In this document: positions 9,805 to 48,775 of the stretch, piece by piece
Layout: the number at the start of each line of letters is the position of its first letter
How positions within the stretch are numbered: the stretch's first letter is position 1
Assembly: GCA_045545055.1 (NCBI GenBank)
Contig: JAZQAB010000105.1
Coordinates: 1-60,586 of the forward strand
Length of the DNA stretch: 60,586 bases
Direction: 5' to 3'
Origin: Clostridia bacterium
Lineage (GTDB): Bacteria; Bacillota; Clostridia; UMGS1883
The notes under the pieces: generated by a model
What the model was told of the DNA's origin: nothing
Database searches by the model: none
What the model saw: only the letters and a program-made list of their open reading frames with translations
Translations under genes and position numbers: made by a program

Positions 9805-12800
9805 ATGAAAAAGCTTATTTCCTTAATAATAGCTCTGACTATACTGATACCCTGTATTGGGGTATCAGCTTCAGATAGTGAAATTATTAACTGGGCGGAT
9901 AAAACTGTTTACAGTAGCGTATCGGGAAGCTGTGCATATGACGTGAAAAACAATAAAACAACGATGGATGCACTTTTCGGGGGTGTGGCAAGCCCGTTAG
10001 CAGGAAGCGGATATAACGTGGAGCTGGACTATCCGAAAACATATTCTGAAGAGTCCAACGGTCAGGGCGTAGGAACTGTCCCGATTTCCAAGTTTCTTGT
10101 TGACTTAGGTGAGGAACGTGAAATTGATTTTATTGATATATATCAATTCAAGGACCGTATTACTGAAATCAAAGTATACGAAGTTAATGATGTATCTAAG
10201 TTTAATGCGGCAAAGAACATAGCGGCATCAATCACAGACAGCTTTATGGCAAATTACACAACTCTTCTTGGTGAAGCAATCTTCGATAACGGAGGCAATG
10301 CTGCGACAACCCTGAACGAGCTTGGTAACTGTAATTCTCCCGATACTATACAGTTCAGCGAAACAAAAACAGCACAGTATCTTCTTTTTACAGTGACACA
10401 AACTGTTTCTACACCGGGATATAGTAAAATATTACTTCAGAAAATTACAATAAATAAGGGTACTCGGACTCCGGGGAATCCTGATCCCGAACAGCCCGGC
10501 ACAGGTGGAGGCACAGATCCTGATCCCGAACAGCCTGGCACAGGTGGAGGCACAGATCCTGAACTTGAAGATCTTACAGCAAGACCGATTTTTAGGGACA
10601 AACACGATAATGCATACAGTAAAGGTGCTGTAGATATTGCGGCTAAATGTATGGAAGGGACTGATTTGGAATCTCTTACAGACTTAACAGATAAAACAGG
10701 TGTAGAGGTTGCCGAAAATGACAGCCTTATTATTGATTTTGGAAAAGAAAAGGTAATTAATCTTATTTCTATGACTCAGCTCGGCAACAAAATTGATGAG
10801 TACGAGATATATTATTCATCGGATGAATCAGAATGGAAGCTTTTTGACAAAGGCAACTTTGAAGTTGTGGATCTTGATTTTGAAGAATCGCAACCTATCG
10901 AAATGAGTGTCGAAAGAGAATCGGTAATTTGCCACTACATTAAAATAGTTGTAAAAACTCTTCGCGAAGACCCTTTAACCGACGTTGCAAAACTTCTTTC
11001 CTTTGAAGCTTATAATACAGAAGATGGAACGGAAGTAAATTTAGCAAACTCAGATTTGCGTAATGATGTTACCGGTTTCAAAAACACAAGTGAAGATACG
11101 ACTTACGGTTATTTCAAAAATGTGTTATCTCCTTCGAAAATTGGATATATAATGTGTCTCAGTTTTATATCGAGTTTGCATAATCATAATAATACTTTCT
11201 TTGCAATAGACTTGGGTAGAGTAACTGATGTTAATAGACTGCAGTTGACTCAGAGAAAAGAAAATATTGTAAATTACAGCATTTACAGCTGTGATTCCGA
11301 CATGGCGTGGAGTCGTGTTTCTGCACTTGGTGGAAACAACAGTCAGCTTGACGAGGGCACCTTATCAGAACTTACAAAAATTACAGACGGTAGTCTTCCT
11401 GATCTGGAGGATTATGATACAATTCTAAATGAGGAAGAAAAAGATCTCGTTTCTGTAATCGATTTTGGTAAAACTGTCAAGAGCCGCTATCTTGTTTTTG
11501 TTATTACAAAGGCTGATAGACCCAATGGCGGACCTATGCAGTGGGATGTTGAAGTGTACAATCATAAGATAGTATCTCCTGTATACACTCCCGACGGAAA
11601 TGAAAGTGAGTTTGATTCGTCGTCTATGGGTACAAATTATGCCCTTGAACATAGTGTAATTTCTGACGCTGGGTATATAGGCAGCAATGCTCCGTATACG
11701 TCAACTGAAATTCTGACCGATGGCACTAAATCTGATGGCAGAAATATCTTCTATCTCGGAGGAAATTCTCCTGCAGAGATGATTTTAGACTTCGGACAAT
11801 CTGTTCCGACAGATACATTGGTTTTGTATGAATACGGACACAAAATGAAAGACGTTGTTATTTCTTCTTCTAACGACAATCTTAGCTGGGAGGAAGTAAC
11901 AACTTATACATCAGGTGAAACAGAAGGACGAGATGCAAATTTTACTGCAATAACATATCCCCTTACCGTTGCAAGGTATATAAAAATATCGAGCTATAAT
12001 CAATCTGGTACGGCCATGCTCTCAGAAATAGAGGCATATTCTTCAGATGAGGTAGCGGTGATTCTTAACAGTCTGACAACAGATATGTTGTCAGATGAAA
12101 GTACACAGTGTATTACAAACAACCTTATAGACCTCCCGGAAACAGTAACGGATGCTGATTCGGGATACAGTGCAACTATTATATGGTCAGGTGGGGAAGG
12201 CGTAATAAATCCGCTGACAGGGGAGATTATAAGAAGTCTTGATGAGGACAAGAATGTTATCCTAAAGGCAACTCTTACTGTAGCGGAAACAGGGGATGTT
12301 TTCGAAAAAACATTTAGCTTCTGTGTGAAGAAAGATTCTTCAGGAACCTTTGTTGAACAGAAGGAGCTTTCTTTTGCAGAATTTATAAATACAGGAAGTG
12401 TAACCGAAGAAAACATTCTTTCTCTCGGTGAAAACTCTTCTGCAACATACACCTATAAGGAAGAAAATGACTTTCTTATAAAGGATAACTTTACAGCTGA
12501 ATTTCAGCTTGACAGTTCGGCATCTTCAGTCTCTTTTGATTTGGGAGAGAAAACTTTTTACATAGAGAAGAATGCCGATGAAACTGTATTTACACTCGAA
12601 GAAAAAGAAATTCTTAAAACAAATGCATACCGGAACGCAAAATACAAACTTGAAATAGTTGACGGAATGCTCAATATTTATATTGATAAGCTTAACGGAT
12701 ATGGATATCGTGCTATATCGTATGGCAATGTGTTTTCAGGTGCTGTACTCGAAACAATAGATTTTTCAACAGGCAGCGAAGAAACTGCAAATGTTATTTT

Positions 12801-14415
12801 TGTAAAACTCTATATTCCTGAAAACAAGCTTATTGATACAGTCTTTGAACAGTTTGATTTTTCAAAACTGTCGGACGATAATCCGCTTCTTCTTACCAAG
12901 AATCTTACTCTTATTTCAAATGTTCTTAAGACTGATATTTCTTACACTACATTGGAATCATCTTCAGCGATAAATAGTGTAAACGGCATGGTGGATTTGG
13001 ATAATCATGGTATATTTAGTTTTAATGTAAAAGTTTCATACAGAGATTCTTCTAAATCAAAAACATTTAAAACTGCAGTAGGCAATATCTTTGCGGGTGT
13101 GCCTGTAAGCGCTTCTGCTGTACCATATGGCGGGACAAGTGAATCAAGTATTACAGCGACTGCGCACGGAGGATATTACCTTACAACTGCGAGCAAATAT
13201 GATATTACAGCAGAAATTCTTGATTTAAAACCTATCACAAAAATTGTGGTTTCAGAGCCTAGCGATGCACTGGGAAGAATTAATGCATGGAGCCTCGAAG
13301 TTTCGCAAGATGGAAAGACATTTGCAAAGGTGGCAGAGGGTAATTCTGTTGGGGAAGAACTTATTATTGATGTTGCTCCCGTTAAGATAAAGAAGATTAA
13401 GTTTTCAGTAAATCAAAGAAACGGAAGCACAAGCGGTATTGAAAAGATGTTAGGATTCTTTACCCCTACAGATATTCAGATAGCTAAGAGCGACAATAAT
13501 TCAGTAAGCGTCCCGGAAGAAATTAACGGAAATATAACACTTCCGCTTTTGGGAGAATATGGTGCTTTATATAAATATGAGCTTGTTGACTCACAGCATT
13601 CAGCTCTTCTCAGCTTTATTGCAGGGGCAGAAAACTATGTTTGTACTGTTACTAAACCAGAAAATGATACTTCAGTTGAAATCAGAATTACCGCAACGTA
13701 TAACGGAGAATCTGTTTCAAAAGTAGTACGTACAAAGGTTAGTGGTAAAAACAGCGTTTCAACAAAACCCTCTGAAGGCGGAACTATAAACGCTGGCAAT
13801 AGTGGCAGTTATAACGGACCTACTACCGGTGGCGGAAGCAGTGGAGAAAAGAAGGAAGATCCTTTGGTTACTCCCGATGTACCCATGGAAGAAAACAAGA
13901 CTGAAAAAGAACTTGAAAACCATTGGGCAAAGGCGGAAATCTCATTCCTTATGGTTAAAGGAATAGTGCGGGGTGACGGAAAGTCCCTTAATCTTGATTC
14001 GTCTGTAACTCGTGCAGAATTTATTGCAATGATAGTTCGTGCAATGGAATGGACAGCCTCCGAAAACAACAGTCAGTTCAAGGATGTAAAATCTACTGAT
14101 TGGTTTGCAGCTGATTTGCAGACAGCCTATGAAAACCGACTCTTCAAGGGCGACGGAATTAATGCAATGCCCAATAAGCGCATAACAAGGCAGGAAGCAG
14201 CAGTAATGCTTGCAAATATCTGCAAAGCAGTTGAAAATGAATCAAAGGGCTTTACTGATAACGTAAATATCAGCGATTGGGCACGGGACGGCGTAGAAAA
14301 GGCATCAGCTTTGGGTCTTATCACGGGATATGAAGATGGTTCCTTTGCTCCCGGCAAGAACATTCGTAGAGATGAAGCAATGGTAGTAATTTACAGATTG
14401 CTTACTTTAAAGTAA
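9805..14415 (+). CDS. 1536-aa cell-surface multi-module protein: discoidin-like modules, Ig-like repeat, C-terminal 3x SLH anchor
   Basis: Seen: signal peptide, then an N-terminal module paralogous to the 8246 gene. Further discoidin-like blocks follow (IIDFGKEKVINLISMTQLGNKIDEYEIYYSSDESEW; MILDFGQSVPTDTLVLYEYGHKMKDVVISSSNDNLSW; ILDLKPITKIVVSEPSDALGRINAWSLEVSQDGKTF). A Gly-rich linker precedes three SLH repeats (HWAKAEISFLMVKGIVRGDG...VTRAEFIAMIV; FKDVKSTDWFAADLQTAY; ISDWARDGVEKASALGLITGYEDGSFAPGKNIRRDEAMVVIYRLL). No catalytic domain recognised. Confidence 0.85.
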   Translation: MKKLISLIIALTILIPCIGVSASDSEIINWADKTVYSSVSGSCAYDVKNNKTTMDALFGGVASPLAGSGYNVELDYPKTYSEESNGQGVGTVPISKFLVDLGEEREIDFIDIYQFKDRITEIKVYEVNDVSKFNAAKNIAASITDSFMANYTTLLGEAIFDNGGNAATTLNELGNCNSPDTIQFSETKTAQYLLFTVTQTVSTPGYSKILLQKITINKGTRTPGNPDPEQPGTGGGTDPDPEQPGTGGGTDPELEDLTARPIFRDKHDNAYSKGAVDIAAKCMEGTDLESLTDLTDKTGVEVAENDSLIIDFGKEKVINLISMTQLGNKIDEYEIYYSSDESEWKLFDKGNFEVVDLDFEESQPIEMSVERESVICHYIKIVVKTLREDPLTDVAKLLSFEAYNTEDGTEVNLANSDLRNDVTGFKNTSEDTTYGYFKNVLSPSKIGYIMCLSFISSLHNHNNTFFAIDLGRVTDVNRLQLTQRKENIVNYSIYSCDSDMAWSRVSALGGNNSQLDEGTLSELTKITDGSLPDLEDYDTILNEEEKDLVSVIDFGKTVKSRYLVFVITKADRPNGGPMQWDVEVYNHKIVSPVYTPDGNESEFDSSSMGTNYALEHSVISDAGYIGSNAPYTSTEILTDGTKSDGRNIFYLGGNSPAEMILDFGQSVPTDTLVLYEYGHKMKDVVISSSNDNLSWEEVTTYTSGETEGRDANFTAITYPLTVARYIKISSYNQSGTAMLSEIEAYSSDEVAVILNSLTTDMLSDESTQCITNNLIDLPETVTDADSGYSATIIWSGGEGVINPLTGEIIRSLDEDKNVILKATLTVAETGDVFEKTFSFCVKKDSSGTFVEQKELSFAEFINTGSVTEENILSLGENSSATYTYKEENDFLIKDNFTAEFQLDSSASSVSFDLGEKTFYIEKNADETVFTLEEKEILKTNAYRNAKYKLEIVDGMLNIYIDKLNGYGYRAISYGNVFSGAVLETIDFSTGSEETANVIFVKLYIPENKLIDTVFEQFDFSKLSDDNPLLLTKNLTLISNVLKTDISYTTLESSSAINSVNGMVDLDNHGIFSFNVKVSYRDSSKSKTFKTAVGNIFAGVPVSASAVPYGGTSESSITATAHGGYYLTTASKYDITAEILDLKPITKIVVSEPSDALGRINAWSLEVSQDGKTFAKVAEGNSVGEELIIDVAPVKIKKIKFSVNQRNGSTSGIEKMLGFFTPTDIQIAKSDNNSVSVPEEINGNITLPLLGEYGALYKYELVDSQHSALLSFIAGAENYVCTVTKPENDTSVEIRITATYNGESVSKVVRTKVSGKNSVSTKPSEGGTINAGNSGSYNGPTTGGGSSGEKKEDPLVTPDVPMEENKTEKELENHWAKAEISFLMVKGIVRGDGKSLNLDSSVTRAEFIAMIVRAMEWTASENNSQFKDVKSTDWFAADLQTAYENRLFKGDGINAMPNKRITRQEAAVMLANICKAVENESKGFTDNVNISDWARDGVEKASALGLITGYEDGSFAPGKNIRRDEAMVVIYRLLTLK
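9886..10025 (+). repeat. Copy B of the 140-nt near-identical direct repeat (partner 8345-8484)
   Basis: Seen: see copy A. The repeat starts at codon 28 of the 9805 gene, the same phase as copy A. Confidence 0.95.
10480..10557 (+). repeat. Tandem 39-nt duplication encoding linker PDPEQPGTGGGTD x2
   Basis: Seen: units 10480-10518 and 10519-10557 differ at one synonymous base (cagcccggc versus cagcctggc). The next 5 nt (cctga) begin a third unit. The duplication is in frame. Confidence 0.95.
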
Positions 14416-14445
14416 TACTGAAATGAGAAAAGAGGAGATTATACA

Positions 14446-17079
14446 ATGAAAAAAATATTAGCTTTAATATTGACTATAGTTATGCTTATTCTTTCTCAGA
14501 GCAGTGTTATGGCGGAAAAAACAACATACGATGATGCGCTCTTCGATATTACTTCGTTGGGAATATTTGTTCCGGATGAAAACGGGGGATACAGAGAGGG
14601 TAGCCCTCTTACACGTGCAGAATTTGCAACAGCAATTCTTCGTATGATAGGATATGATGAAATTGTATCAGTCGGTGTAGCGACCTCTTTTGCCGATGTA
14701 GCAGAGGAAGATTGGTATTATAATGCTGTACAGAATGTTTATTCGCTTAACATAATGACTGGGGATGGAAAAGGTTATTTCCATCCCACGGCAAATGTAA
14801 CCCTAGAGGAGGCGGTAAAAACAGTAGTTACCATTCTCGGTTATGAAATATCTGCTGAAAATCTTGGTGGCTGGCCGCAAGGATATATGGCGATGGCTAC
14901 AAAATTAGGTGTTCTTGATGGGTTGAAAACATCAGGAGTATTTACTCGCGGAGATTTGGCAGTAGTTCTCTACAATGCTCTTGATGTGCAAATTCTTACT
15001 AAGCGCTATGGTAGTGAGGAATTTTATAAAGACAGTGATACATATCGTTATCTGCTGATGCGAAAGTATGGGAAAAAGGTATATAATGTAGTTGATGTTG
15101 TTAAGGCAACTGCGTTTTCTTATACTGAATTTCCTATAAAAGACCTTGAAGAGGACGAGGTAGTTATTGGGGATATACGCTACAAGAAAGGCAGTACTGA
15201 TGTTGATAACTACATCGGTATGGAGGTAGAGATTTTTGCTGTGGAGTACCCTGAAGGAACAACAACTCTCCTTTCTGTAAAACCGACCGGCAACAATACT
15301 GTTACAGAGATTGCACTTGCGGATATTGAAGGATGCAGTAATTCCTATGTCAATTATACAAGCGGAAACAAGACAGAAAAAATTAACTTTGAAGCGCTCC
15401 CCGTGATGCTTTATAACGGAACCCCCGTAGAATTTAACAAAAACGAACTTTTGTCAGAAAATCCAGGATGTATAAAGTTTGTCGATTGTAACAACAATAA
15501 AAAAGTTGATTATATTTTTATAGAGGCATATGAAAATATACTTGTTCAGCGAGTTTCTGAAAATGTTATCGTACCTTATAACGGATTTACTGTAAATGGT
15601 AAGAAAACCTTGTTCGTAGATTTAGAGAATGAGAATAAAAAGTTCGAAATTTATGACGGTAACGGTGAGATTGCACAGTTTACCGACATAAAGCCTGAAC
15701 AGATTTTGAGTGTCTATTCTGATAAGAATGAAACTCGTTTCAGAATTTATTTAAGTGACAAGACAGGTACGGGAGTTTTTTCTGAATATGATGAAAATAC
15801 AGTAAAAATAGATGACAATACCTATAATGTTTATAGTAAAACTGTATACGACGGGGAACTTGGAGACGAGGTCACGGTATACATTGATGCAAAAGGATAT
15901 TGTGCATATATAAAATATGTACCACAGACTAAGAATTATGGATATGTGTTAGATGTGTGGGAATCAGGTTTCACAAAAGAAGTAGCCCTACTCCTTTCAA
16001 AGCCTGCAAGCTTTACCGCAGATATCAACTCTGAAGACTTGGACAATATAACTTCTACACCTGTTCTTATTTGTGAAAATGAAGGAATTGAATATTACAG
16101 TCTTGCAAAAAAAGTAAAAATTAATGGACAGAGATACAGTCAGGGTGATGCAATTGAGAAACTTCAAAATGCGGGGGCTGTTAAATTCAGTCTTAATTCA
16201 GAAGGACTTATTTCTGAAGCGGAGATACTTGAAATGTATGCAGGCGATGAAAGTCTGAAACTTACATATAACGTTTATGACAAAGTATTTGCCGGAAATT
16301 CATTCATTGAAGGATTTTCTCTTGATGAAAAATCAAATATTATATGTATTCCCGAAATCGTCAAGCGCGAAGATGACTATCTTGTAAAAACTCGTATCGA
16401 TGTCAGTGGTAATACGGAAGGATACAATGTAAGAGCCTACGATTACGATGAAGTAACAAAGAAAGCAGGCCTTGTTGTTATTGTAAAGGGTATGGATGCA
16501 GAACTTATAAATGATGCTACAATAACATCTTCACCAGCTTGTATGGTTAAGAATGTGAGAGTCGTATGTGACGAAGACAACGGAGATTATTATAGACTAA
16601 CATTGATAGAAAACGGTAAGGAAGTTACATATAATACTATAGAAGTCAGAGAAAAGAATGAAGTTATAAGCGAACTACGTCCTGGAGATCTTATAAGTTA
16701 TTATATGAACGATTCTGATCTTATTGAAAATGTTATGCTTTTTCATTCGTTTAAAAATGGAGATAGCTCCTATAAAATTCAACATGCTACTCGTGACTAT
16801 GTAGAGTACTGCGGTATTATTGAAGATGTTTCATTTGATGAGGTAGATAATACAAATTGTCTTTTGGCGACAAAGGTGGTTATGGAGATTCAGGGTGGCT
16901 CGGTACCGTTGTACATACAACAGAGAAATAAACCTCCGGTATTTATCTATGATTTTTCAGGTGAAGAAATGGTGCAGAGTTCATCACTTGAAGAACTTAT
17001 TCCGGGATATGACAAACTCTATGTTCTTTCTGTATCGAACAAAACCCCTAGAGCTTGCGTTATTATAAGAGGAGAATAA
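14446..17079 (+). CDS. 877-aa surface protein: signal peptide + N-terminal SLH triplet + about 690-aa uncharacterised body
   Basis: Seen: GAGGAG RBS and signal peptide MKKILALILTIVMLILSQSSVMA. SLH-like repeats: LTRAEFATAILRMIG; FADVAEEDWYYNAVQNVYSLNIMTGDGKGYFHPTANVTLEEAVKTVV; GWPQGYMAMATKLGVLDGL...TRGDLAVVLYNAL. The rest matches no motif I recognise. A paralogue lies at 46129. Confidence 0.8.
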   Translation: MKKILALILTIVMLILSQSSVMAEKTTYDDALFDITSLGIFVPDENGGYREGSPLTRAEFATAILRMIGYDEIVSVGVATSFADVAEEDWYYNAVQNVYSLNIMTGDGKGYFHPTANVTLEEAVKTVVTILGYEISAENLGGWPQGYMAMATKLGVLDGLKTSGVFTRGDLAVVLYNALDVQILTKRYGSEEFYKDSDTYRYLLMRKYGKKVYNVVDVVKATAFSYTEFPIKDLEEDEVVIGDIRYKKGSTDVDNYIGMEVEIFAVEYPEGTTTLLSVKPTGNNTVTEIALADIEGCSNSYVNYTSGNKTEKINFEALPVMLYNGTPVEFNKNELLSENPGCIKFVDCNNNKKVDYIFIEAYENILVQRVSENVIVPYNGFTVNGKKTLFVDLENENKKFEIYDGNGEIAQFTDIKPEQILSVYSDKNETRFRIYLSDKTGTGVFSEYDENTVKIDDNTYNVYSKTVYDGELGDEVTVYIDAKGYCAYIKYVPQTKNYGYVLDVWESGFTKEVALLLSKPASFTADINSEDLDNITSTPVLICENEGIEYYSLAKKVKINGQRYSQGDAIEKLQNAGAVKFSLNSEGLISEAEILEMYAGDESLKLTYNVYDKVFAGNSFIEGFSLDEKSNIICIPEIVKREDDYLVKTRIDVSGNTEGYNVRAYDYDEVTKKAGLVVIVKGMDAELINDATITSSPACMVKNVRVVCDEDNGDYYRLTLIENGKEVTYNTIEVREKNEVISELRPGDLISYYMNDSDLIENVMLFHSFKNGDSSYKIQHATRDYVEYCGIIEDVSFDEVDNTNCLLATKVVMEIQGGSVPLYIQQRNKPPVFIYDFSGEEMVQSSSLEELIPGYDKLYVLSVSNKTPRACVIIRGE

Positions 17080-17080
17080 T

Positions 17081-18214
17081 ATGAAGGTAGATTCTAATAC
17101 AAAAAAATGGGCTGATGAAATATGGGGAAAGCTTGATAGAAAACTTTCCCATTCAGTTTCTACAGTAGGAGATATGATTCCCTATACCACTAAAGGAGGA
17201 AAATACTGCCCTCATGAATCGAACGATATATCATGGTGGACAAACGGCTTTTGGGGCGGATTAATGTGGCTTATGTATGCAGGTACAAAAAATGATCTAT
17301 ATAAAAAGGCCGCAGAGAAGAATGAGGTGCTTCTTGAAGAAGCATTTGAGGAATATAACGGAATACATCATGATGTAGGCTTTATGTGGCTCCTTACCTC
17401 AGGAGCAAACTATATGCTTACAGGGAGTCAAAAATCCGGCAAAAGAATGATGCACGCAGCAGACCTTCTTGCAGCAAGATTCAATGTAGAGGGCGGTTAT
17501 ATTCGTGCGTGGAATGGACCTAAAGAAGAGGAAAGGTTCAGGCAGATTGCAATAATTGACTGTATGATGAATATTTCTCTCTTATACCATGCTTCAAAAG
17601 AAAGTATGGATGATAGATATAAGGCAATAGCGATGCGTCATGCAGATAAAACAATGCGGCACCACGTAAGAGAAGACGGAAGTATAAATCACATAATGAG
17701 ATACGACACCCATACAGGCGAGGTAGTAGCAATAGAAGGCGGTCAGGGGTATAATGAAAATTCCTCATGGTCCCGCGGTCAAAGCTGGGGCCTGTACGGA
17801 TTTACTCTAAGCTATATACATACAGGTAAAAAGGAATATCTTGATACGGCAAAAAAGATAGCTCATTACTTTATAGCAGCGTGTTGCAGTGATTGGCTGG
17901 TAAGAAGTGATTTTCGTGCACCCAAAGAACATATTCTGTATGACAGCACAGCAGCATGTATTGCAGCGTGCGGACTTCTTGAACTTTCAGGATTGGTAGA
18001 TGAAAAAGAATCAGATATGTACTTTAGTGCGGCAATAAATATTCTTAAGGCGACGGAAGAGAAATTTGCTGACTGGTCAGAAGAGACAGACGGAATACTA
18101 GATTTTGGTTCTGAATTGTATAATGGTGGAAAGCATATGAAGATAATCTATGGAGATTATTACTTTGCAGAAGCTATATATAAGCTTAGAGAAACAGGAC
18201 CGCTTTTCTGGTAA
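17081..18214 (+). CDS. GH88 unsaturated glucuronyl hydrolase, cytoplasmic
   Basis: Seen: the ATG is 1 nt after the previous stop; no signal peptide. Known: GH88 hallmark blocks WWTNGFWGGLMWLMY, HHDVGFMW, IIDCMMNISLLY, SWSRGQSWGLYGF and DSTAACIAACGLLEL. Confidence 0.9.
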   Translation: MKVDSNTKKWADEIWGKLDRKLSHSVSTVGDMIPYTTKGGKYCPHESNDISWWTNGFWGGLMWLMYAGTKNDLYKKAAEKNEVLLEEAFEEYNGIHHDVGFMWLLTSGANYMLTGSQKSGKRMMHAADLLAARFNVEGGYIRAWNGPKEEERFRQIAIIDCMMNISLLYHASKESMDDRYKAIAMRHADKTMRHHVREDGSINHIMRYDTHTGEVVAIEGGQGYNENSSWSRGQSWGLYGFTLSYIHTGKKEYLDTAKKIAHYFIAACCSDWLVRSDFRAPKEHILYDSTAACIAACGLLELSGLVDEKESDMYFSAAINILKATEEKFADWSEETDGILDFGSELYNGGKHMKIIYGDYYFAEAIYKLRETGPLFW

Positions 18215-18232: not shown

Positions 18233-21200
18233 ATGATGAAAAAAGTATTTGCATTTTTAATGTCTTCAATTATTTTCTTTTCCGGATACAGCTTCACCAC
18301 ATTTTCTGCCAATGAAAACACAAGTGAATATTTTCAGGAAAAAATAGATTTTTATGAAAGTTTTAATGTTGGAGACCCTCAGGCTTTTACTGATGAAGAA
18401 TTTTTCGGTAAGTGGGACGGTGAAAAATGGGAGGTAGACCCTGCTTTTGATTATGAGAATTTTCCATGTTTAGTTGATATTGAAGAAGCTGCAAAAACAA
18501 GTGATTATGCTGCAGCAAAAGAAGCAACCCTTGAATATTACAGGCAAAGATTTAAAGAAGATAAGTATGAGAGCACTGTAACTGCAACCTCAAAATCTTA
18601 CCGTCTTTTGGGCGAGCTTGCGATGGAGAATACCATGATAAGATTTTCTAATCTTGTTCCTATGGAAAAACTTACACTCGTTGAAGATGAAAAATGGTAT
18701 GAGGCAGATTTGATCGAGCGTGTGTTACACCGAATTACAACTACAACTAGTACAAGGTTCAATATTCGTTTACACGAAACAAAAAAAGATGGATATATGG
18801 CACAGTTCTGGACTAAGGAAAGTGACAAAACTCCATATGTGAAAATTATTGTAAATGGTGCTGAACGAACATATTATCCTTTGGCAGATAATACTGTACG
18901 TGCCGGAGATTTCCTTAATACTTCGTATAGCAATGAAGAATATATGTACGCGAATGAAAGCTATACGACCATCGGAAAAGAATCTCCTATAGATAATTAT
19001 ACAAGGAGAGCATGCATGCTGTTCGATTTTTCCGACATAACAGCCAATGATACAATAAGCTCAGCAAAACTTTTTGTGTATGGAAAGATGATAGAGGATG
19101 ATAATCCTGAGAGACCGGAAGAAATAAAAACTTCAATGAGTGTTTTTGTGCTTGATGATGCACAGAACTTAAATTGGATAGAAGAGGGTCATTCTTGGTT
19201 ATCACAGAGTCAGGACGACAGCTTTTCATATGATGGAGAATATGGACCCAATCTTACAATTCCCACAAAGCTGAGTGGTCAGTGGTCGGCTTTTGTAATG
19301 CATCAGCAGTATATGGTGAAGTGGCTTACCGACCTTTACAGAGGAACAGGTGATGAAGCATATGCATATCACGCTATAAGACTTACAATAAATTCAGCTC
19401 ACATTCTCCGTGACGATTTTACTCAGGTAACTCAGTACTTTATGCAACTAGCAACAAGAAACTCAAATCTTGTAACAAACTTATACACACTTATAAAAAG
19501 TGATTATATGACTCCTGAGTATTTCACAGTAATTCTGAAATTGATTCATATGCAAAATGACTACCTTGTAGAAGGTTGGTCGAGCGGCGATGAAACAAAT
19601 AATATAGGCTCTATAGTAACAGCGGGACTTATGAAGGGCGCATTAACTATCAGGGAGTTTAAAAAATACAGTGCCCCAAAAACTGGGTTAAGTAATCCTA
19701 ATTGGCCTGGCTCAATGCAGGGCGGATGGAGAGATGTAGGTATATATCGCTCAATTTATAAATTAAAAACTACGGTTTTTGAAGACGGTAGTTGTGTGGA
19801 AATTCCGATTGCCTATCTTATGACCAATGTAACTCACTTCTTTGAGTGTTATGAGTGGGCAGAGGAGATTGGTTTCGGAGAAGAAATGGCAAAATATGTT
19901 GAGAGCTCTGAACGTGAGCTTCTTCGCAAAGTTGCATACTATGTTGTGAATATGCAAAACCCTATAAAAGGAGTATGGCAGATTGGCGATGACAGCAAAT
20001 ACGTATCAAATAATTCTTCGAAAATGTGTTATATTGTAAAGTTTTTTGGAATAAATGATGACCCCGTTATCGAATGGGGATATTCTAAGGGAGAAAATGG
20101 AGCGCCGCCTGAGAACACTTCATATGTTTCAGATACGGTGCAAAAAGCTGTTCTTAGAAGCAATTGGACAGAAAATGCGGTGGCGCTATATATGGATGCC
20201 GACGGTGGAGTTGGCTCTCATGCGCATAATGATGACCTTTCTCTGGGACTTATGGCTTATGGAAAGTATCTTCTTGTTGACCCTCTTAAGCATACTTATA
20301 ACGGAGACCAGAAGATTGTAAGCTGGCAGGTTTCCACAAGGGCTCATAATACTATTGAAATAAATAACGCTACCCAGCGTGGAATGGTCACCGGACAAGG
20401 TCTTACTGAAGAGCCTTTTGGTGAAGAACTTTATTTTCCTTCGCAAACAGGTGAAATAGGTTCTCTGAATCCAGAAACAAGATATCTTGGAAAGCTTTAT
20501 GATTATATGGAGGGTGATACAAACGGGTATAAGAATAACAATGCTCTTAATGGTGATTTTAAGGTTTCGAGGAATGTGCTTTTTGTAAAACCCGGATATT
20601 TTATTGTAACTGATTATATAAAACCTGAAAATACAGACGAGAATACATATAAACAGGCATGGCATCTTTATCCGGGTATCAAGTATGAAATAGAAGAAGA
20701 TTCAAAAAATATTGTTTCAAAAGATGCACAAGGTGCAAATCTTATTATTGCTCCCGTTGACAGCAACGGAGAAATCTCTCTGGAAAAACGAAGAGGATAT
20801 TACAGTACACAGGGCTCTAATACTCCGGTTATTGTAGAAAACGAATATGTAACTTATAATAAGCAGAAAAATGGAACAACAACCTATAACACAATTTTGT
20901 ATCCTTTAGCAGCAGGCGAAATAAAGGATATACAGACAGCAGATATTCCTCTTGATGTGGATGAAAGTGTTGCAAATGCATTTTCAGCAATAATAACCGA
21001 TAAAAATTCTGGGGGAGTAACTAATGTTTCTTACTATACTTTGTTTGATGATACACAGAAAGCAGATAGAAAATTCGGATATTACAGAACAGACGGAACA
21101 CTTGCGTTTGTTGAAAAAATTCAGGATAATTACAGCAAAGTAATTCTGAAAAACGCAACAAAGCTTTCCGTTGACGGAGGAAATGCGATTGTAGAGAACG

Positions 21201-22105
21201 GAAATATTATTAAAGACATAGGAATAAAAAATGAAAATTACGCTATCGAAATTGATGTAAAGGATGAAAGTGATATCGATGTGGATACTTTCAGACTTTA
21301 CAGCGATGATAATATAAAATCTGTAACCATTAATGGTCGCAGTGTATACTTTGAACAGAGAGACGGTTATGTTTATCTGAGGGAAACAGGAATTCCGGAG
21401 GATGTAACTGATGATACCATTTCTGCCCCGATAGTACCTGAACATTCTACTGGAAAAAAGCCTTCAGGATGTGGAGGAAGCTCTTCTGGGGTTGGCTCTA
21501 CCAGTGGAGAAAGTGATAACCCCGAAAACGATAAAACGGGTATAGACACTCCCGTAGCTACGGACAAGGATAAAGAGTCTTTCTCTGATATTTCTGCACA
21601 CTGGGCAGAAAAGTATATTCTTGAAGCAAGTGAAAAGAAACTTGTAAATGGTGACGGAAAAGGAAACTTTAAGCCTGACGACTCCGTAACACGGGCTGAG
21701 CTTATTACAATGCTTATGCGTGCAGTAGAGGGAAATGATGTTAATTATAACGGAAACTTCTCCGATGTGGTTTCAGACGATTGGTTTGCACTCGCAGTTG
21801 CGAAAGCATTGTCATTGGGAATTATATCAGAAGATACAAAATTCCGTCCCAATGATTGTGTAACTCGAGAAGAAATGTGCAAGATGATAGTGAATGTATA
21901 CACAATTCTCAGCGGTGAGATAATTGCCAGAAATGACATTACATTTTCTGACGGAGAGGATATATCCTCATGGGCGGAGGATTTTGTTAAAAAAGCCGTG
22001 TCAGCAGGACTCATGAATGGTGTTGACAAGAATTCTTTTGCTCCCAGGAGTGGAGCAACACGAGCTCAGGTAGCAACAGTAATTTGCAGAATGCTGAAAA
22101 ATTAA
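18233..22105 (+). CDS. 1290-aa heparinase II/III-like (polysaccharide-lyase fold) protein with C-terminal 3x SLH anchor
   Basis: Seen: AAAGGAGAG RBS and a signal peptide. Known: heparinase II/III block GVGSHAHNDDLSLGLMAYGKYLLVDP...RAHNTIEIN, and an upstream helical region starting DYAAAKEATLEYYRQR. After a Gly/Ser linker come three SLH repeats (FSDISAHWAEKYILEASEKKLVNGDG...; FSDVVSDDWFALAVAKALSLGIIS; ISSWAEDFVKKAVSAGLMNGVDKNSFAPRSGATRAQVATVICRML). Confidence 0.85.
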   Translation: MMKKVFAFLMSSIIFFSGYSFTTFSANENTSEYFQEKIDFYESFNVGDPQAFTDEEFFGKWDGEKWEVDPAFDYENFPCLVDIEEAAKTSDYAAAKEATLEYYRQRFKEDKYESTVTATSKSYRLLGELAMENTMIRFSNLVPMEKLTLVEDEKWYEADLIERVLHRITTTTSTRFNIRLHETKKDGYMAQFWTKESDKTPYVKIIVNGAERTYYPLADNTVRAGDFLNTSYSNEEYMYANESYTTIGKESPIDNYTRRACMLFDFSDITANDTISSAKLFVYGKMIEDDNPERPEEIKTSMSVFVLDDAQNLNWIEEGHSWLSQSQDDSFSYDGEYGPNLTIPTKLSGQWSAFVMHQQYMVKWLTDLYRGTGDEAYAYHAIRLTINSAHILRDDFTQVTQYFMQLATRNSNLVTNLYTLIKSDYMTPEYFTVILKLIHMQNDYLVEGWSSGDETNNIGSIVTAGLMKGALTIREFKKYSAPKTGLSNPNWPGSMQGGWRDVGIYRSIYKLKTTVFEDGSCVEIPIAYLMTNVTHFFECYEWAEEIGFGEEMAKYVESSERELLRKVAYYVVNMQNPIKGVWQIGDDSKYVSNNSSKMCYIVKFFGINDDPVIEWGYSKGENGAPPENTSYVSDTVQKAVLRSNWTENAVALYMDADGGVGSHAHNDDLSLGLMAYGKYLLVDPLKHTYNGDQKIVSWQVSTRAHNTIEINNATQRGMVTGQGLTEEPFGEELYFPSQTGEIGSLNPETRYLGKLYDYMEGDTNGYKNNNALNGDFKVSRNVLFVKPGYFIVTDYIKPENTDENTYKQAWHLYPGIKYEIEEDSKNIVSKDAQGANLIIAPVDSNGEISLEKRRGYYSTQGSNTPVIVENEYVTYNKQKNGTTTYNTILYPLAAGEIKDIQTADIPLDVDESVANAFSAIITDKNSGGVTNVSYYTLFDDTQKADRKFGYYRTDGTLAFVEKIQDNYSKVILKNATKLSVDGGNAIVENGNIIKDIGIKNENYAIEIDVKDESDIDVDTFRLYSDDNIKSVTINGRSVYFEQRDGYVYLRETGIPEDVTDDTISAPIVPEHSTGKKPSGCGGSSSGVGSTSGESDNPENDKTGIDTPVATDKDKESFSDISAHWAEKYILEASEKKLVNGDGKGNFKPDDSVTRAELITMLMRAVEGNDVNYNGNFSDVVSDDWFALAVAKALSLGIISEDTKFRPNDCVTREEMCKMIVNVYTILSGEIIARNDITFSDGEDISSWAEDFVKKAVSAGLMNGVDKNSFAPRSGATRAQVATVICRMLKN

Positions 22106-25157: not shown

Positions 25158-25176
25158 AAACATTTCCTCGAAAATT

Positions 25177-31760: not shown

Positions 31761-31815
31761 AAAAAGCTTGATTAATAAATCTTTTTGCATTAAAAATAGT
31801 AGCGGAGGGATGAAA

Positions 31816-33954: not shown

Positions 33955-33971
33955 AAAGGCTGTATACGAAA

Positions 33972-34077
33972 GTTCTTTTTTATATTCTGTAGGAGTCAAA
34001 CCAGTTGCTTTTTTAATTTGCTTGAAAGAGTAACCTACATATATATTTATGCGGCCTGTTTCAAAGAAACGGCGCAC
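33972..34077 (-). pseudogene. Probable relic of an AraC-family C-terminal helix-turn-helix (about 35 codons)
   Basis: Seen: the minus-strand frame reads RRFFETGRINIYVGYSFKQIKKATGLTPTEYKKE, with no upstream body and no proper start. Known: (F)K..TG.TP.EY(R/K)K is the usual AraC tail. Short and degenerate, hence low confidence. Confidence 0.4.
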
Positions 34078-34091
34078 TCACCTCCGCGTGA

Positions 34092-46128: not shown

Positions 46129-48732
46129 ATGCTTAAAAAAATGATTTGTTTATTCATAGTAACTGTATTAGTTTTTAGTTGCTTTGGTATCAGCTACAGT
46201 AATAATTATACCGAAGGTCCGGTTATATATGACTACAGCGAAAGGAGTATAACCGAGGAAGCTGTTGACTATCTGGTTATGTTGAATCTTCTTGAAACTG
46301 TAGATACTGAAAAAGTAATTACCAGAGGACAAGCTATAAGTCTTGTGATGCACTCCCTTGTGCTTGACGATGGAATGAATTCTGAGGAGCATATAGCTCA
46401 ATCAGCTTACTCCCAGGGACTGATTTCCGGGGACAATTCTGCCGACCGGAGATTAAATGACAGTATAACCTTGGAAGAAAGTGCAAAATTGATGGTTCTT
46501 GCACTTGGCTATCCCATTGAAGAAAAAACAGGCGAGCTTTGGTCAAGCGAATATTTGATGTATGCAAGTAAGCTTAAATTACTTGATGGTATACACAAAA
46601 CTCGCACGGATGAATTGACGTGGGGAGATTTTGCTATTCTGCTTTCACACACAATGAAATCTCTTGTTGTTGAGTCTACAAACTTTTCAACAATAAAGCC
46701 CGATGATGAATTTCAAATTACATATGAAAAATCAGAAAGTGATACGCTTGAACAACATTATCTTGAGAAAAAAGAGTGGTTTTTAAAAACAGGCATTGTT
46801 GAGGCTGACCATTATTCAACGATGGTTTACGAAGGTGAATTTAAAAAGAACATAATCCGAATTGATGGTATTGAATTCTCCGTTGAAAGTGATGAGTTTT
46901 ATGGGTATGTGGGAAATAAAGTAGAGTATGTTTTCTCGGAAGAAGCTGCCGAAACCGGCAGAAAAATAATCGGTATGAAAGCTTGCACTTCCAATACGAC
47001 TTATGAATTTAAACCCGGATATGATATATCGTTTAGGGATAATTCTCTCTTTTATACAACGAATAATTCGAAAGAAAAAAGACTTTCTGCAAACGGAGCA
47101 GTGTATTTATATAACAACGAGCTTCTTATTTCTTATGATATCAGCGGTATTGATTTGAAATTTTGCCAAGTTACGGCAATTGAAAATAATAATGACAATA
47201 ACCTTGATGTGATTTATATTACTGAGTCGGAAAGTATGTTTGTTGACTATGTAAAGGACAATAAAATCTATTTAAAAGACGGAACTGTAAACTCAAAGAG
47301 TGTTATAAACATAGAAGAATTTGAAGACCACTGTTTGATAATTAATGATTTATACGCAAATAAAGTTCTTCCTGAAGACATCACGGAGAAAAGTCCGGTT
47401 TCAATAATTGCATCAAAGAGCATGAATTATCTCAAAATCATTTTGCTTAATTCGGAATTTACAGGCTCAATTCAAACAATAGATAGCGAGGAAAACATTA
47501 TTTCAATTGACGGAAATGAGTACAAGGTAAAAGACAACGTTGCAGATTTAAAATTCGGTATTATTTATAAAATATGGACTGATAATAATGGTTTCATATT
47601 TCATATGAAAGAAAGCAAGGAAGCGTTTGCATATTTAGTGGCGAAAGCTCCGGGAAACGGATTATCTAAAGATATTCAAATAAAACTGTATGTTCCGGGA
47701 AGCGGAATGACTGTGTTTGAAGTTGAAAACAGAGTTAAAATTAATGATATGTCTTACAGTGATAATCAATCAGTACTCAGAGCAATACCAACTGATGAAT
47801 TAGTAAGGTACTCAATTAATAGTAAAGGGAAAATAAACAAGCTTGAAACCTTAGAAAAATATGGTGAAAATGCATCGAGAATATACAGAAGTCAGGTGAA
47901 AGGCTTCAACGATATTGATAATAATGCAAGTGTTCCTTTCCGATTTGACGATGATACGGCATTCTTTTATGTACCGCTCAACGGTGATGATGAAGAGTTT
48001 GGAAAGCTGTTAAAGCTTGAAAACGGAACAGAGTATATGACTCAGGCGTATGAATACGATGTCGAAGATAAGTTTGTAGATGCTGTTGTAATAACGATTG
48101 ATACAGAGCAATGGGATAATGTGAGATTGGATTCCGATTCGGATGTTGCCATTATAGACAGAGTATATTGCACTCGTTTTGACAATGATGAATTCGGGTA
48201 TGTGGTAAAAGGTTTCTGCGATGGTGAGGCTTTTGAATACTACAGTGCTGAAGACAGCGGTGCAAGTAATGTACTGTCCTCTTTAAAGCAGGGGGATGTT
48301 GTTAGATTTGAAACAGACTATAACGAAGAAATCGTTAAAATGGAGGTTATTGCACGGCTTTCACAAACAAATGATTTCTACCACGATGGGGCAGATACTG
48401 TTGATGAGCAGTTCTTCGGACCGGTAATAATGCTTGATAAGAATACTCTGACAAATTATTCCAAATATCTGTTCCATGAAATGAGTGTCAGCACAAGCTT
48501 AAGCTACGATCATCTTGTTAATATGAGAATTTATGCCGATTTGGACAATCCTTACGATTCAGACGCAGAATTTTCTGCCTACTATTATTATGACAGGGAG
48601 AATAAAGAAGTAAGACTGGCGTCAATTGATGATATTGTTCCTTACAGCAGTGCAGGCGAAGGGGCAACAAGAGTATTTGTTCAGAGGTCTAAATCTAATG
48701 TACAGTGTATAGTTATTGTTGATAACGACTGA
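46129..48732 (+). CDS. 867-aa surface protein with degenerate N-terminal SLH-like repeats and an uncharacterised body; paralogue of 14446..17079
   Basis: Seen: the ATG at 46129 lies 7 nt after GGGAGG, with signal peptide MLKKMICLFIVTVLVFSCFGISYS. SLH-like segments: ITRGQAISLVMHSL; AQSAYSQGLISGDNSADRRLNDSITLEESAKLMVLALG; YLMYASKLKLLDGI...LTWGDFAILLSHTM. Landmarks in the body are shared with the 877-aa protein. Confidence 0.75.
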   Translation: MLKKMICLFIVTVLVFSCFGISYSNNYTEGPVIYDYSERSITEEAVDYLVMLNLLETVDTEKVITRGQAISLVMHSLVLDDGMNSEEHIAQSAYSQGLISGDNSADRRLNDSITLEESAKLMVLALGYPIEEKTGELWSSEYLMYASKLKLLDGIHKTRTDELTWGDFAILLSHTMKSLVVESTNFSTIKPDDEFQITYEKSESDTLEQHYLEKKEWFLKTGIVEADHYSTMVYEGEFKKNIIRIDGIEFSVESDEFYGYVGNKVEYVFSEEAAETGRKIIGMKACTSNTTYEFKPGYDISFRDNSLFYTTNNSKEKRLSANGAVYLYNNELLISYDISGIDLKFCQVTAIENNNDNNLDVIYITESESMFVDYVKDNKIYLKDGTVNSKSVINIEEFEDHCLIINDLYANKVLPEDITEKSPVSIIASKSMNYLKIILLNSEFTGSIQTIDSEENIISIDGNEYKVKDNVADLKFGIIYKIWTDNNGFIFHMKESKEAFAYLVAKAPGNGLSKDIQIKLYVPGSGMTVFEVENRVKINDMSYSDNQSVLRAIPTDELVRYSINSKGKINKLETLEKYGENASRIYRSQVKGFNDIDNNASVPFRFDDDTAFFYVPLNGDDEEFGKLLKLENGTEYMTQAYEYDVEDKFVDAVVITIDTEQWDNVRLDSDSDVAIIDRVYCTRFDNDEFGYVVKGFCDGEAFEYYSAEDSGASNVLSSLKQGDVVRFETDYNEEIVKMEVIARLSQTNDFYHDGADTVDEQFFGPVIMLDKNTLTNYSKYLFHEMSVSTSLSYDHLVNMRIYADLDNPYDSDAEFSAYYYYDRENKEVRLASIDDIVPYSSAGEGATRVFVQRSKSNVQCIVIVDND

Positions 48733-48775
48733 ATTTAGCTTGGGCAACAAATACGGGAAAAGGAGGGAACATTCA

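Follow-up and report, generated by a model that had tools for sequence, protein, structure and literature searches.

An SLH-anchored protein family encoded beside exported glycan-active proteins of uncultured Clostridia: a possible surface component of Gram-positive sugar harvesting

Introduction

The usual description of polysaccharide-utilisation loci in Gram-positive bacteria comprises a regulator, an ABC transporter and a set of enzymes, and to our knowledge it includes no dedicated non-catalytic surface component comparable to SusD, SusE or SusF. The anchoring scaffoldins of the Acetivibrio thermocellus cellulosome (OlpB, SdbA and Orf2p) are SLH-anchored, non-catalytic organisers of surface enzymes; they carry SLH at the C-terminus and have cohesins as functional modules.

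Here we analyse an 877-residue protein encoded by the ORF at 14446..17079 (+) of the window, that is, the whole 60,586-nucleotide stretch of clostridial DNA under study, which holds two glycan-utilisation cassettes. An earlier note, made from the DNA letters, had proposed that this protein is a dedicated, undescribed surface component serving, for example, in glycan capture or hand-off, or as a scaffold for the neighbouring lyase. The results presented below suggest that it may be a missing surface component of Gram-positive sugar-harvesting systems.

Results

The target gene is surrounded by the following elements of its cassette:

9805..14415 (+): upstream partner of 1536 aa, with F5/8 type C (CBM32-like) modules and a C-terminal SLH region (Pfam)
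14430..14438 (+): ribosome binding site (RBS) AAGAGGAGA, 7 nt ahead of the target ATG
17081..18214 (+): GH88 unsaturated glucuronyl hydrolase (PDB 1vd5, E=4e-64; sequence)
18233..22105 (+): CBM96 and heparinase II/III-like (heparinase III, PL12-like) lyase with a C-terminal SLH region (domain scan, synteny, co-divergence)

The target gene comes only 30 nt past the stop of the upstream giant SLH protein gene and is therefore probably co-transcribed with it; a sequence scan found no terminator-like site between the two genes. An equivalent giant protein with C-terminal SLH is encoded upstream in most related loci. As had been claimed, the gap to GH88 is 1 nt: the target stop TAA (17077-17079) is followed by a single t and by the GH88 ATG at 17081, the GH88 RBS being located within the 3' end of the target ORF. 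When both cassettes were scanned for promoters and terminators, matches were no commoner than in shuffled sequence; judged by its sequence context, the target is a mid-operon gene without a promoter of its own, which differs from the monocistronic organisation with strong expression signals of S-layer-type genes. GH88 is predicted to be cytoplasmic because it has no signal peptide, and the transporter of the cassette is an ABC system with a solute-binding protein (SBP).

The N-terminal part of the target comprises two features:

14446..14514 (+): Sec signal peptide, residues 1-23, with cleavage after VMA (sequence; conservation of A23)
14521..14988 (+): SLH trimer, residues ~26-181, with motifs TRAE, TLEE and TRGD (Pfam, Foldseek, phmmer)

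The N-terminus, MKKILALILTIVMLILSQSSVMA followed by E after the cleavage point, is a typical Sec signal peptide of the SPase-I type, and Ala23 is conserved in 89% of 56 homologues. Only one SLH repeat of the target scored above the Pfam threshold (residues 81-123, 52 bits). The AlphaFold model nevertheless matched the entire SLH trimer of Paenibacillus alvei SpaA (Foldseek TM 0.73-0.79 over ~163 residues) and also matched Bacillus anthracis Sap, the two sets of matches together spanning TM 0.63-0.79. Phmmer aligned target residues 36-158 with SpaA, pairing TRAEFA with TRAEFA and VTLEEA with ITVEEA, so that the first two of the motifs TRAE (56-59), TLEE (119-122) and TRGD (167-170) correspond to TRAE and TVEE of SpaA. 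All 56 homologues share R57, and conservation reaches 92% or more at T56, A58, E59 and R168. The three repeats, with their TRAE-type motifs, thus make up one pseudo-trimeric module, and the signal peptide and SLH triplet first read from the sequence are confirmed. By analogy, this trimer is predicted to anchor the protein to pyruvylated secondary cell-wall polymer. In both cassettes the other SLH proteins, four in all, carry SLH at the C-terminus, in keeping with the opposite anchor orientation reported earlier; N-terminal SLH is the orientation of true SLH-type S-layer proteins.

The remainder of the target is organised as follows:

14989..17076 (+): body, residues 182-877, all-beta, with about eight small OB-like barrels (AF2, Foldseek, hhalign)
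15484..15513 (+): D-x-[DN]-x-[DN]-x3-[DE] loop followed by a hydrophobic strand, residues 347-356 (column counts in 56 homologues)
15931..17076 (+): C-terminal half, residues 496-877, four packed barrels forming one compact unit (AF2, Foldseek)

Residues ~186-877 matched no family in Pfam or NCBIfam, and the body profile had no match among PDB sequences at E<=10, in agreement with the earlier description of about 690 residues devoid of any nameable motif. The AF2 model (pLDDT 83) has an all-beta body, and the C-terminal half reached pLDDT 89.7 and pTM 0.77. With the body as query, Foldseek retrieved only generic tandem OB-fold proteins, at probabilities of 0.9-0.99 and TM of only 0.15-0.30; the order strand-strand-strand-helix-strand-strand is seen at residues 537-594 and 699-768, again with TM to OB proteins of only 0.15-0.30. 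In these searches this generic likeness was the sole resemblance of the body to any characterised domain family. At least four barrels derive from one repeat unit of ~60 aa, as revealed by hhalign profile-profile comparison, unlike BLASTP self-comparison, which did not find the internal repeat. Per-domain identities showed the largest divergence between paralogue groups in the last two barrels, divergence being otherwise nearly even across all barrels.

In the loop at residues 347-356, which falls within a landmark singled out in the earlier note, which in the target has D347, N349, N351 and D355 at the motif positions, the three D/N positions are D or N in 51/56, 42/56 and 52/56 homologues, and the last is D or E in 54/56. 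To judge from its sequence, this loop resembles DxDxDG Ca-binding loops and may bind Ca. Gly, Pro, Tyr, Asn and Asp account for most of the conserved residues of the body, and these do not look like a catalytic set. Gly or Asn occupies the invariant positions and Thr, Gly, Tyr or Pro the near-invariant ones, and no conserved acidic/His/Lys/Arg constellation was present among the homologues compared. The protein (~95 kDa, pI 4.5, net charge -56) contains 11 cysteines and only three tryptophans in 877 residues. Acidity was dropped as a case against binding of an acidic glycan, since all exported proteins of the window have a pI of 4.4-4.9.

The Pfam scan found no CBM in the target or its cassette-2 paralogue and no SusD or SusE/F match in the target, no CBM was among the listed Foldseek matches of the body, and neither a cohesin nor a dockerin was found in the target or in the scanned neighbours. 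Several candidate likenesses were rejected. Matches to DDB1/cereblon (E ~1e-6) are spurious long all-beta alignments (TM<0.1, rmsd ~30 Å). Nucleic-acid binding, suggested by the likeness to HIN, SSB, RPA and LEF-3, was discarded since the similarity is at fold level only and the protein is exported, wall-anchored and strongly acidic. Marginal, partial Pfam matches at or below cut-off were attributed to chance: Fibrinogen_C in the target, absent from the paralogue, and LysM_OapA (22.5 bits for a cut-off of 22.3, 30/85 positions), PilY2 and HUN in the paralogue only. A search of a viral structure library returned SLH and LEF-3-type matches only.

Cassette 2 provides the following counterparts:

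46129..48732 (+): paralogue (ORF opens at 46111), with homologous body and degenerate SLH region (BLASTP, alignments, Pfam)
48716..53749 (+): partner lyase, with two CBM96, aBig_2, heparinase II/III-like domain and C-terminal SLH (domain scan)

The likely start of the paralogue is the ATG at 46129 following GGGAGG, which yields 867 aa, and that of the lyase is an ATG near 48776. Target and paralogue are 25% identical over 689 aa (BLASTP E=1e-30). The landmarks VDYIFIEAYENILVQRV and LDVIYITESESMFVDYV, as well as the two C-termini, align with each other, so that the paralogue reported earlier is real. The shared layout claimed for it holds for the body and not for an intact SLH region: the N-terminal region of the paralogue gave no Pfam SLH at E<=0.1 and no PDB sequence match at E<=10, and its motifs read TRGQ, TLEE and TWGD. 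The cassette-2 GH88 gene precedes the paralogue by ~150 nt, with a hairpin in the gap, and therefore the adjacency to GH88 is not conserved.

The body family comprises 5,532 clusters at 50% identity, nearly all of ~870-920 aa and of the same layout, and its members were seen here only in metagenome-assembled genomes (MAGs) of uncultured Clostridia. A literature search did not find a description of this very large family, which is unannotated and undescribed; the earlier view of a conserved family of exported, SLH-anchored proteins devoid of a recognisable catalytic domain is upheld. Conservation was counted in the 56-homologue alignment and the Pfam scan covered selected members. Genomes were scanned with a nine-sequence alignment as seed (A3), a six-sequence body alignment (A2) being too divergent for this use. 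A lyase with CBM96, heparinase-III-like domain and SLH was encoded one or two genes downstream in 17/25 genome loci, the remaining eight being interrupted by contig ends, in a sample biased towards the lyase-linked clade since both A3 search motifs are specific to that subfamily. Furthermore, the divergence of the body parallels that of the lyase catalytic domain (r=0.98, Mantel p<=0.0005, n=14). These results show a strong co-occurrence with the lyase: the protein, noted earlier as kept in both cassettes despite the changed gene order, stays with the lyase system in many genomes. By contrast, the link to GH88 that had also been proposed is incidental: fewer than half of the loci encode this cytoplasmic enzyme within 10 kb, and the SLH lyase is the constant neighbour.

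Several copies are found per genome, each in its own operon, and every sampled operon copy is co-directional with genes for exported glycan-active proteins. Distant members belong to xylan, GH141, GH38 and GH39/GH106 loci, with no heparinase-like lyase in the examined flanks, which speaks against scaffolding of the lyase as a general family role. CBMs occur in the family only as extra N-terminal modules of some distant members. In both loci with CBM-fused variants that were examined, the CBM is of the type found in the neighbouring enzymes, namely CBM_4_9 at a xylan locus with GH10 and F5/8C at a locus with GH141. As the GH10 and GH141 enzymes listed there show no SLH, these two loci do not call for a role in a lattice of SLH enzymes.

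The family is fast-evolving as well as large, and it includes longer homologues (P0075, P0092, P0067 and P0264) that are monocistronic and located in housekeeping regions, like S-layer genes. P0092, whose gene has promoters close to consensus and a terminator of 13 bp, matched the family profile with an hhalign probability of 100% (E=3e-72). The body of a stand-alone homologue used as query retrieved 18 relatives only, all from MAGs or metagenomic sequences and none from a cultured organism. The best explanation, held tentatively and at somewhat less than even odds, is that the operon copies are paralogues of stand-alone S-layer-type genes that were recruited repeatedly, one per operon.

Discussion

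We tentatively propose that the target is an S-layer-derived, non-catalytic, operon-specific surface protein that tethers a glycan or oligosaccharide and resembles surface glycan-binding proteins (SGBPs) in role, a proposal that we hold with less than even confidence. The protein, whose signal peptide is seen in the sequence, would be exported by Sec and cleaved, and its SLH trimer, like those of SpaA and Sap, would bind pyruvylated secondary cell-wall polymer. The ~690-residue body, predicted to be a chain of about eight OB-like beta-barrels derived in part from one repeat, would project from the wall, probably stiffened by the conserved Ca-type loop. It could then hold the polysaccharide, or the unsaturated oligosaccharides released by the lyase, at the wall beside the SLH-anchored CBM96/heparinase-III-like lyase and the CBM-rich giant SLH proteins, above the lipoprotein SBP. 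The products would be imported by the ABC importer and trimmed by the cytoplasmic GH88.

This proposal is based on the signal peptide and SLH anatomy, the confident all-beta model with OB-only fold matches and the lack of catalytic-looking residues, together with the uniform layout in 5,532 clusters, the presence of each copy in its own operon among glycan-active neighbours, and the synteny and co-divergence with the lyase. Glycan capture or hand-off is plausible; the one direct hint of capture is that both examined CBM-fused variants carry the CBM type of their neighbours, and the marked paralogue-group specificity of the two distal barrels, the highest of all barrels, is a further hint. Several points argue against it: no known CBM or SGBP fold was detected in the body, the OB-fold matches have low TM, and tryptophan is unusually scarce for a sugar-binding platform. 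In addition, the cassettes already encode CBM32-like, CBM96 and aBig_2-rich proteins that could perform the capture, the even divergence of the barrels and the invariant length suit a structural unit as well, and the stand-alone homologues look like ordinary S-layer genes. Whether the family as a whole is a general clostridial counterpart of SGBPs, each copy capturing the polymer or retaining products of its operon in a 'selfish' pseudo-periplasm, is more doubtful still; such a compartment may lie between the surface enzymes and the binding protein of the ABC transporter.

A purely structural scaffold is nearly as likely as the glycan tether, although in itself still rather unlikely. The protein would then bind no glycan and would use contacts homologous to those made by the housekeeping S-layer protein to take a place in or beside the S-layer, where it would give the very large SLH-anchored enzymes and CBM proteins a docking patch, spacer or pore specific to the operon. 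N-terminal SLH, a mass of ~95 kDa, a pI of 4.5 and an all-beta multidomain body are the classic S-layer profile. Also in favour of this reading are the monocistronic longer homologues of housekeeping regions, the body length kept over thousands of clusters and the even divergence over all barrels. The Ca-type loop would suit Ca-dependent S-layer assembly, and co-divergence with the lyase could reflect direct protein contact. However, a mid-operon gene without its own promoter suggests amounts similar to those of its neighbours rather than the bulk expression of a lattice, family members are also found where the listed GH10 and GH141 enzymes show no SLH, and the substrate-matched CBM fusions point to the glycan and not to the enzymes. 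Moreover, the fold search revealed no similarity to solved S-layer assembly domains, and the sequence match to Sap is confined to SLH.

A general adhesin or protective surface coat, located in operons through co-regulation with growth on host or dietary glycans, would account for the surface location, the large and fast-evolving family and the S-layer-like relatives, but it appears improbable given the strict operon position next to genes for exported glycan-active proteins; a generic coat or adhesin would not be expected to occur once per operon and several times per genome, or to diverge in parallel with an enzyme. Slightly less probable again is an accessory specific to the lyase, such as an extracellular chaperone, an inhibitor or an activity modulator. 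In its favour the lyase lies directly or nearly directly downstream in all informative loci of the lyase-linked subfamily and co-diverges tightly with the body, but members exist as stand-alone genes and in xylan, GH141, GH38 and GH39/GH106 loci devoid of such a lyase, and a wall-anchored, eight-domain body of ~700 residues is oversized for a chaperone or inhibitor. Finally, an unrecognised enzyme, e.g. a lyase, esterase or hydrolase of novel fold with the same polysaccharide as substrate, is most improbable: the body is unannotated and many CAZyme families began as 'unknown' genes in such operons, but its small OB-like barrels offer no larger cleft-forming domain, its invariant residues are Gly or Asn with no candidate catalytic constellation, and its architecture stays the same from one locus to another although the glycans concerned are chemically unrelated.

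The significance of these findings lies in a huge and uniform family, absent from Pfam, NCBIfam and PDB, whose genes in uncultured Clostridia of gut and rumen consistently neighbour those of exported glycan-active proteins. If its members bind glycans or organise the surface enzymes, they would fill a gap in models of how Firmicutes forage for fibre and host glycans, supply a marker gene by which to locate these operons in metagenomic data and tie S-layer evolution to nutrient acquisition. If the target is merely a structural coat paralogue, substrate-tied, condition-specific isoforms of S-layer type would still be of interest to S-layer biologists.

Regarding known systems, the best structural matches of the body are tandem OB-fold proteins (HIN-200, Deinococcus/Thermus SSB, RPA and baculovirus LEF-3), with which it shares tandem barrels of the order beta1-3, helix, beta4-5; at 9-14% identity and the low TM given above, this likeness is at fold level only, and these proteins are intracellular nucleic-acid binders whereas the target is exported, wall-anchored and highly negative in charge. 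The homologue P0013 matched Pfam DUF5666 below threshold (25.6 bits for a cut-off of 27) on its fourth barrel, the unit of ~60 aa being equal in size to the body repeat; the target itself gave no match to DUF5666, for which we know of no function.

With SLH-type S-layer proteins (Sap/EA1, SpaA and Geobacillus stearothermophilus SbsB), the target has in common a Sec peptide followed by an N-terminal SLH trimer and a large secreted body of ~700 residues that is acidic, all-beta and multidomain, and its distant homologues are stand-alone genes with S-layer-like features. It differs from them by a body without fold or sequence likeness to solved assembly or crystallisation domains (Foldseek matches to S-layer entries of the PDB were SLH-only, and full-length Sap, 9g93, was matched by sequence over SLH residues only), by its location inside a glycan-utilisation operon with several paralogues per genome, and by its 11 cysteines. 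Like the cellulosomal scaffoldins, it is an SLH-anchored non-catalytic protein encoded with a polysaccharide-degrading system, but its SLH region is N-terminal and it has no cohesin, nor do its scanned neighbours have a dockerin.

Lastly, the target comes from another phylum and envelope type than the Bacteroidota SGBPs (SusD-like and SusE/F-like), with no outer membrane, SusC partner or lipoprotein signal, and its OB-like barrels and SLH anchoring differ from their TPR or Ig/CBM-like folds, so that it is not a member of the SusD, SusE or SusF families. The resemblance is in role only, glycan binding by the target being putative: both groups are non-catalytic and surface-exposed, with one divergent copy per locus at a fixed position beside genes for key surface enzymes or transporters, and both keep their architecture in spite of strong sequence divergence.

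Gene structure and surface anchoring of the target protein

The target gene, in the first of the two glycan-utilisation gene clusters (cassettes 1 and 2) of the window, is a genuine open reading frame:

14446-17079, + strand, target protein of 877 aa

Its ribosome-binding site, AAGAGGAGA, is a good match followed 7 nt further on by the ATG, and only 30 nt separate its start from the stop codon of the upstream 1536-aa gene. As the earlier note had described, a single base lies between the target TAA and the ATG of the next gene (GH88), whose ribosome-binding site is found inside the last codons of the target. A Sec signal peptide with cleavage after VMA23 forms the N-terminus (A23 is 89% conserved in the homologue alignment), and Pfam scored a single SLH repeat at residues 81-123. 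The AlphaFold2 model, built from a 56-sequence alignment and confident (mean pLDDT 83), superposes on the whole SLH trimer of Paenibacillus alvei SpaA (TM 0.73-0.79, ~163 residues) and also on the SLH of Bacillus anthracis Sap, and phmmer aligned TRAEFA and VTLEEA of the target with TRAEFA and ITVEEA of SpaA. Therefore, these superpositions and motif alignments confirm the proposed N-terminal SLH triplet. The anchor orientation is indeed opposite to that of the enzymes, every other SLH protein of both cassettes carrying SLH at the C-terminus. The designation of the target as an exported, SLH-anchored, non-catalytic surface protein is well supported.

Fold and conservation of the body

The ~690-residue body that follows the SLH trimer gave zero matches in Pfam or NCBIfam, and its profile retrieved nothing from PDB sequences even at E<=10, in agreement with the view that it is unassignable. 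The AlphaFold2 model predicts it to be all-beta from residue 182 on, with strand-strand-strand-helix-strand-strand units (e.g. 537-594 and 699-768), and the C-terminal half (residues 496-877) modelled alone is compact and very confident (pLDDT 89.7, pTM 0.77). The fold search suggested in the earlier note returned only generic tandem OB-fold proteins (HIN-200, Deinococcus/Thermus SSB, RPA, LEF-3) with probabilities of 0.9-0.99, yet TM of 0.15-0.30, so that the predicted likeness would be one of fold and not of family membership. Foldseek matches of the target to DDB1 were spurious (TM<0.1).

Profile-profile comparison of eight body segments (numbered from d1) indicated that at least four have a common 40-50-residue repeat (d1~d4, d4~d5 and d5~d7 at 89% probability, d3~d7 at 84%), and one homologue gave a sub-threshold DUF5666 match on the fourth unit. 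The loop at residues 347-355 (D-x-[DN]-x-[DN]-x3-[DE], with a hydrophobic strand after it) is 75-96% conserved among 56 homologues and resembles DxDxDG loops, suggesting putative Ca binding. Conserved body positions in the homologue alignment are mostly Gly, Pro, Tyr, Asn and Asp, and no catalytic-looking residue set was found among them. Trp is scarce in the target. Its pI of 4.5 is uninformative because every exported protein of the window is likewise acidic.

The two cassettes and their implied pathway

The genes of the cassettes are, in order:

Cassette 1
AraC regulator (minus strand)
GH20-like protein
unknown 654-aa protein
two ABC permeases
lipoprotein binding protein of the ABC importer (SBP)
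515-aa F5/8C protein
1536-aa F5/8C + SLH protein
target
GH88
1290-aa lyase (CBM96 + heparinase II/III-like + SLH)

Cassette 2
AraC regulator
two permeases
SBP
GH88
paralogue of the target (ORF 46111-48732, likely start 46129 after GGGAGG)
1677-aa lyase (CBM96 + heparinase-like + SLH)
1462-aa aBig_2 + SLH protein

The GH88 is a close relative of the unsaturated glucuronyl hydrolase of Bacillus sp. GL1 (1vd5, E=4e-64) and has no signal peptide, and the closest solved relative of the lyase is heparinase III (4mmh, E=5e-10). CBM96 was introduced, by definition, as a module specific for alginate (PMC9971899). From what is established about PL/GH88 systems, we infer a three-step pathway in which a uronate-containing polymer would be cut extracellularly by the wall-anchored lyases, the unsaturated oligosaccharides would be imported by the SBP and ABC system, and the unsaturated uronate would be removed by cytoplasmic GH88.

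The giant SLH proteins at 9805-14415 (which has a duplicated PDPEQPGTGGGTDP linker) and 53712-58100 contain binding-type modules only (F5/8C, NedA-like, aBig_2), and a catalytic domain was not recognised in either; it may be these two that really capture glycan in the cassettes. Two listed TTG starts are probably too far upstream: that of the cassette-2 lyase (48716; likely ATG near 48776, about 44 nt past the paralogue stop) and that of the aBig_2 protein (53712; likely ATG near 53742, so that it overlaps the lyase end by 8 nt, window 53712-53749).

The paralogue had been described as having the same layout as the target. Their bodies are homologous (25% identity over 689 aa, E=1e-30) and the landmark peptides quoted for both align with one another, but the SLH region of the paralogue is degenerate (TRGQ/TLEE/TWGD) and was undetected by Pfam and by PDB sequence search. 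Just past GH88 and ahead of the paralogue, a 12-bp hairpin (AATGGCTGGCTC...GAGTCAGCCATT) and a weak T tail are present at 45998-46026; the hairpin was not flagged by the terminator scan, and cassette 2 may be divided there into two transcripts.

Size, distribution and neighbours of the family

A word-indexed search turned up 225 relatives; MAGs and unnamed metagenomic sequences account for all of them, and their sole name is 'S-layer homology domain-containing protein'. An exhaustive body-only profile search returned 5,532 cluster representatives at E<=1e-3 (4,920 at <=1e-10; 943 at <=1e-30). Among the best 150 of these, nearly all measure 860-930 aa and have a body that begins at residue about 185-230; the architecture is strikingly uniform, the exceptions being truncated fragments and two variants of ~1000 aa extended at the N-terminus. 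Pfam, NCBIfam, PDB and the searchable literature yielded no description of the family.

Homologues of the window genes were mapped onto 30 related loci, 25 of them genome loci from a scan seeded with subfamily-specific motifs. In GTDB species genomes, this subfamily was found in 'Clostridia bacterium', Oscillospiraceae and Ructibacterium MAGs, several with two to four loci each. A CBM96 + heparinase-like lyase lies downstream on the same strand in 17 of the 25 genome loci, either directly next or after one giant F5/8C/aBig_2 SLH protein; in the remaining 8, the contig edge comes before a second downstream gene is readable, and this subfamily holds no informative counter-example to the linkage. 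The upstream gene usually encodes a giant C-terminal-SLH protein. Pairwise divergences of the body and of the lyase catalytic region are correlated (r=0.98, Mantel p<=0.0005, n=14, several pairs near-identical; median identities 29% and 33%, respectively), which is evidence of inheritance as a unit but not of physical contact. GH88 is found within 10 kb in a minority only (twice in the window, and in loci L002, L004, L013 and L022). The emphasis that the earlier note placed on GH88 should shift to the lyase and, in a wider sense, to exported glycan-active neighbours; its observations stand, its interpretation is partly supported, and a relationship to S-layer-type genes is to be added.

This relationship emerged from distant members, whose contexts were sampled by exact-protein look-up:

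P0017, P0045, P0056, P0058: lyase loci
P0055: GH38 nearby
P0114: with GH39, GH4 and GH106
P0106 (locus L032): xylan locus, GH10/GH30/GH67/GH2
P0065 (locus L038): GH141 locus
P0075, P0092, P0067, P0264: stand-alone longer genes, 998-1112 aa

The stand-alone homologues sit among ribosomal, translation and cell-division genes (in L031, L034, L036 and L037, neighbours are dapB/DHDPS, NusA/IF2, S6/SSB/S18 and L10/L12/EF-G). They are true homologues, as hhalign against the family profile shows (P0092, probability 100%, E=3e-72, 712 columns; P0075, 93% over 519 body columns). Near-consensus promoters lie about 120-320 nt upstream of P0092 (L034), which also has a strong 13-bp terminator; such a gene structure is typical of S-layer genes. 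These uncultured Clostridia may use the stand-alone homologues of the four loci as their primary S-layer proteins. Some members carry an additional module ahead of SLH, of the type of the neighbouring enzymes in both loci examined (CBM_4_9 in L032, F5/8C in L038), and P0190 has an N-terminal IG_AIR9 module. It is well supported that this very large, undescribed family is related to S-layer-type genes and was recruited into glycan-utilisation loci, one copy per operon.

Possible roles of the body

We tentatively favour a surface protein tethering glycans or oligosaccharides, similar in function to the surface glycan-binding proteins (SGBPs) of Bacteroidota, because the copies are specific to their operons and have diverged together with the enzymes, the gene is mid-operon, implying amounts like those of its neighbours, the fused CBMs match the locus substrate, and the two distal barrels are the most paralogue-group-specific part of the body. 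The presence of members in loci whose listed GH enzymes (GH10 in L032, GH141 in L038) show no SLH argues for the same role. A role that is purely structural, as a scaffold or docking site of S-layer type, is possible and almost as likely: the overall profile of the target is that of an S-layer protein, stand-alone homologues exist, the architecture is invariant, divergence is even over the barrels, and CBM-rich proteins are already present in the cassettes. A lyase-specific accessory role is disfavoured because members occur in loci showing no heparinase-like lyase. In view of the fold and conservation pattern of its body, the target is unlikely to be an enzyme.

Other features of the window

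33955-34827, + strand, short-chain dehydrogenase ORF (167 aa, Pfam profile positions 87-236 only)
22449-25256, - strand, GH3 protein with permuted domain order
2699-4663, 31696-33954 and 58316-60586, + strand, large ORFs of 654 aa, 752 aa and >757 aa
38020-40300, YhcG/DUF1016 PDDEXK nuclease gene and a 1.25-kb gene-poor stretch, between the galactose (GalT/GalK) genes and cassette 2

The short-chain dehydrogenase ORF is probably a 5'-truncated pseudogene, because two in-frame stops lie upstream and the N-terminal Rossmann part is missing. In the GH3 protein, the Pfam 'C-terminal' domain (residues 64-318) and an Fn3-like domain precede the 'N-terminal' catalytic domain (residues 558-807); the listed ORF and the GH36 ORF have about 80 nt in common, and the real start is therefore probably further in. 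Pfam gave nothing for the three large ORFs, nor did NCBIfam for the first two; the third, after cassette 2, encodes a signal peptide and runs past the window end. No tRNA was found anywhere in the window.

Comparison with known systems

The defining features of SusD/SGBP proteins, CBMs and scaffoldins were sought in the target and are absent, so it cannot be filed with any of them; its likeness to SusD/SGBP proteins and to scaffoldins is in role only. Nor can it be filed as an S-layer protein, because its gene structure and body fold differ from those of that class. By contrast, its N-terminal module does belong to the SLH family. The target is thus of a known kind as an SLH-anchored surface protein, and new in its body and its conserved operon context.
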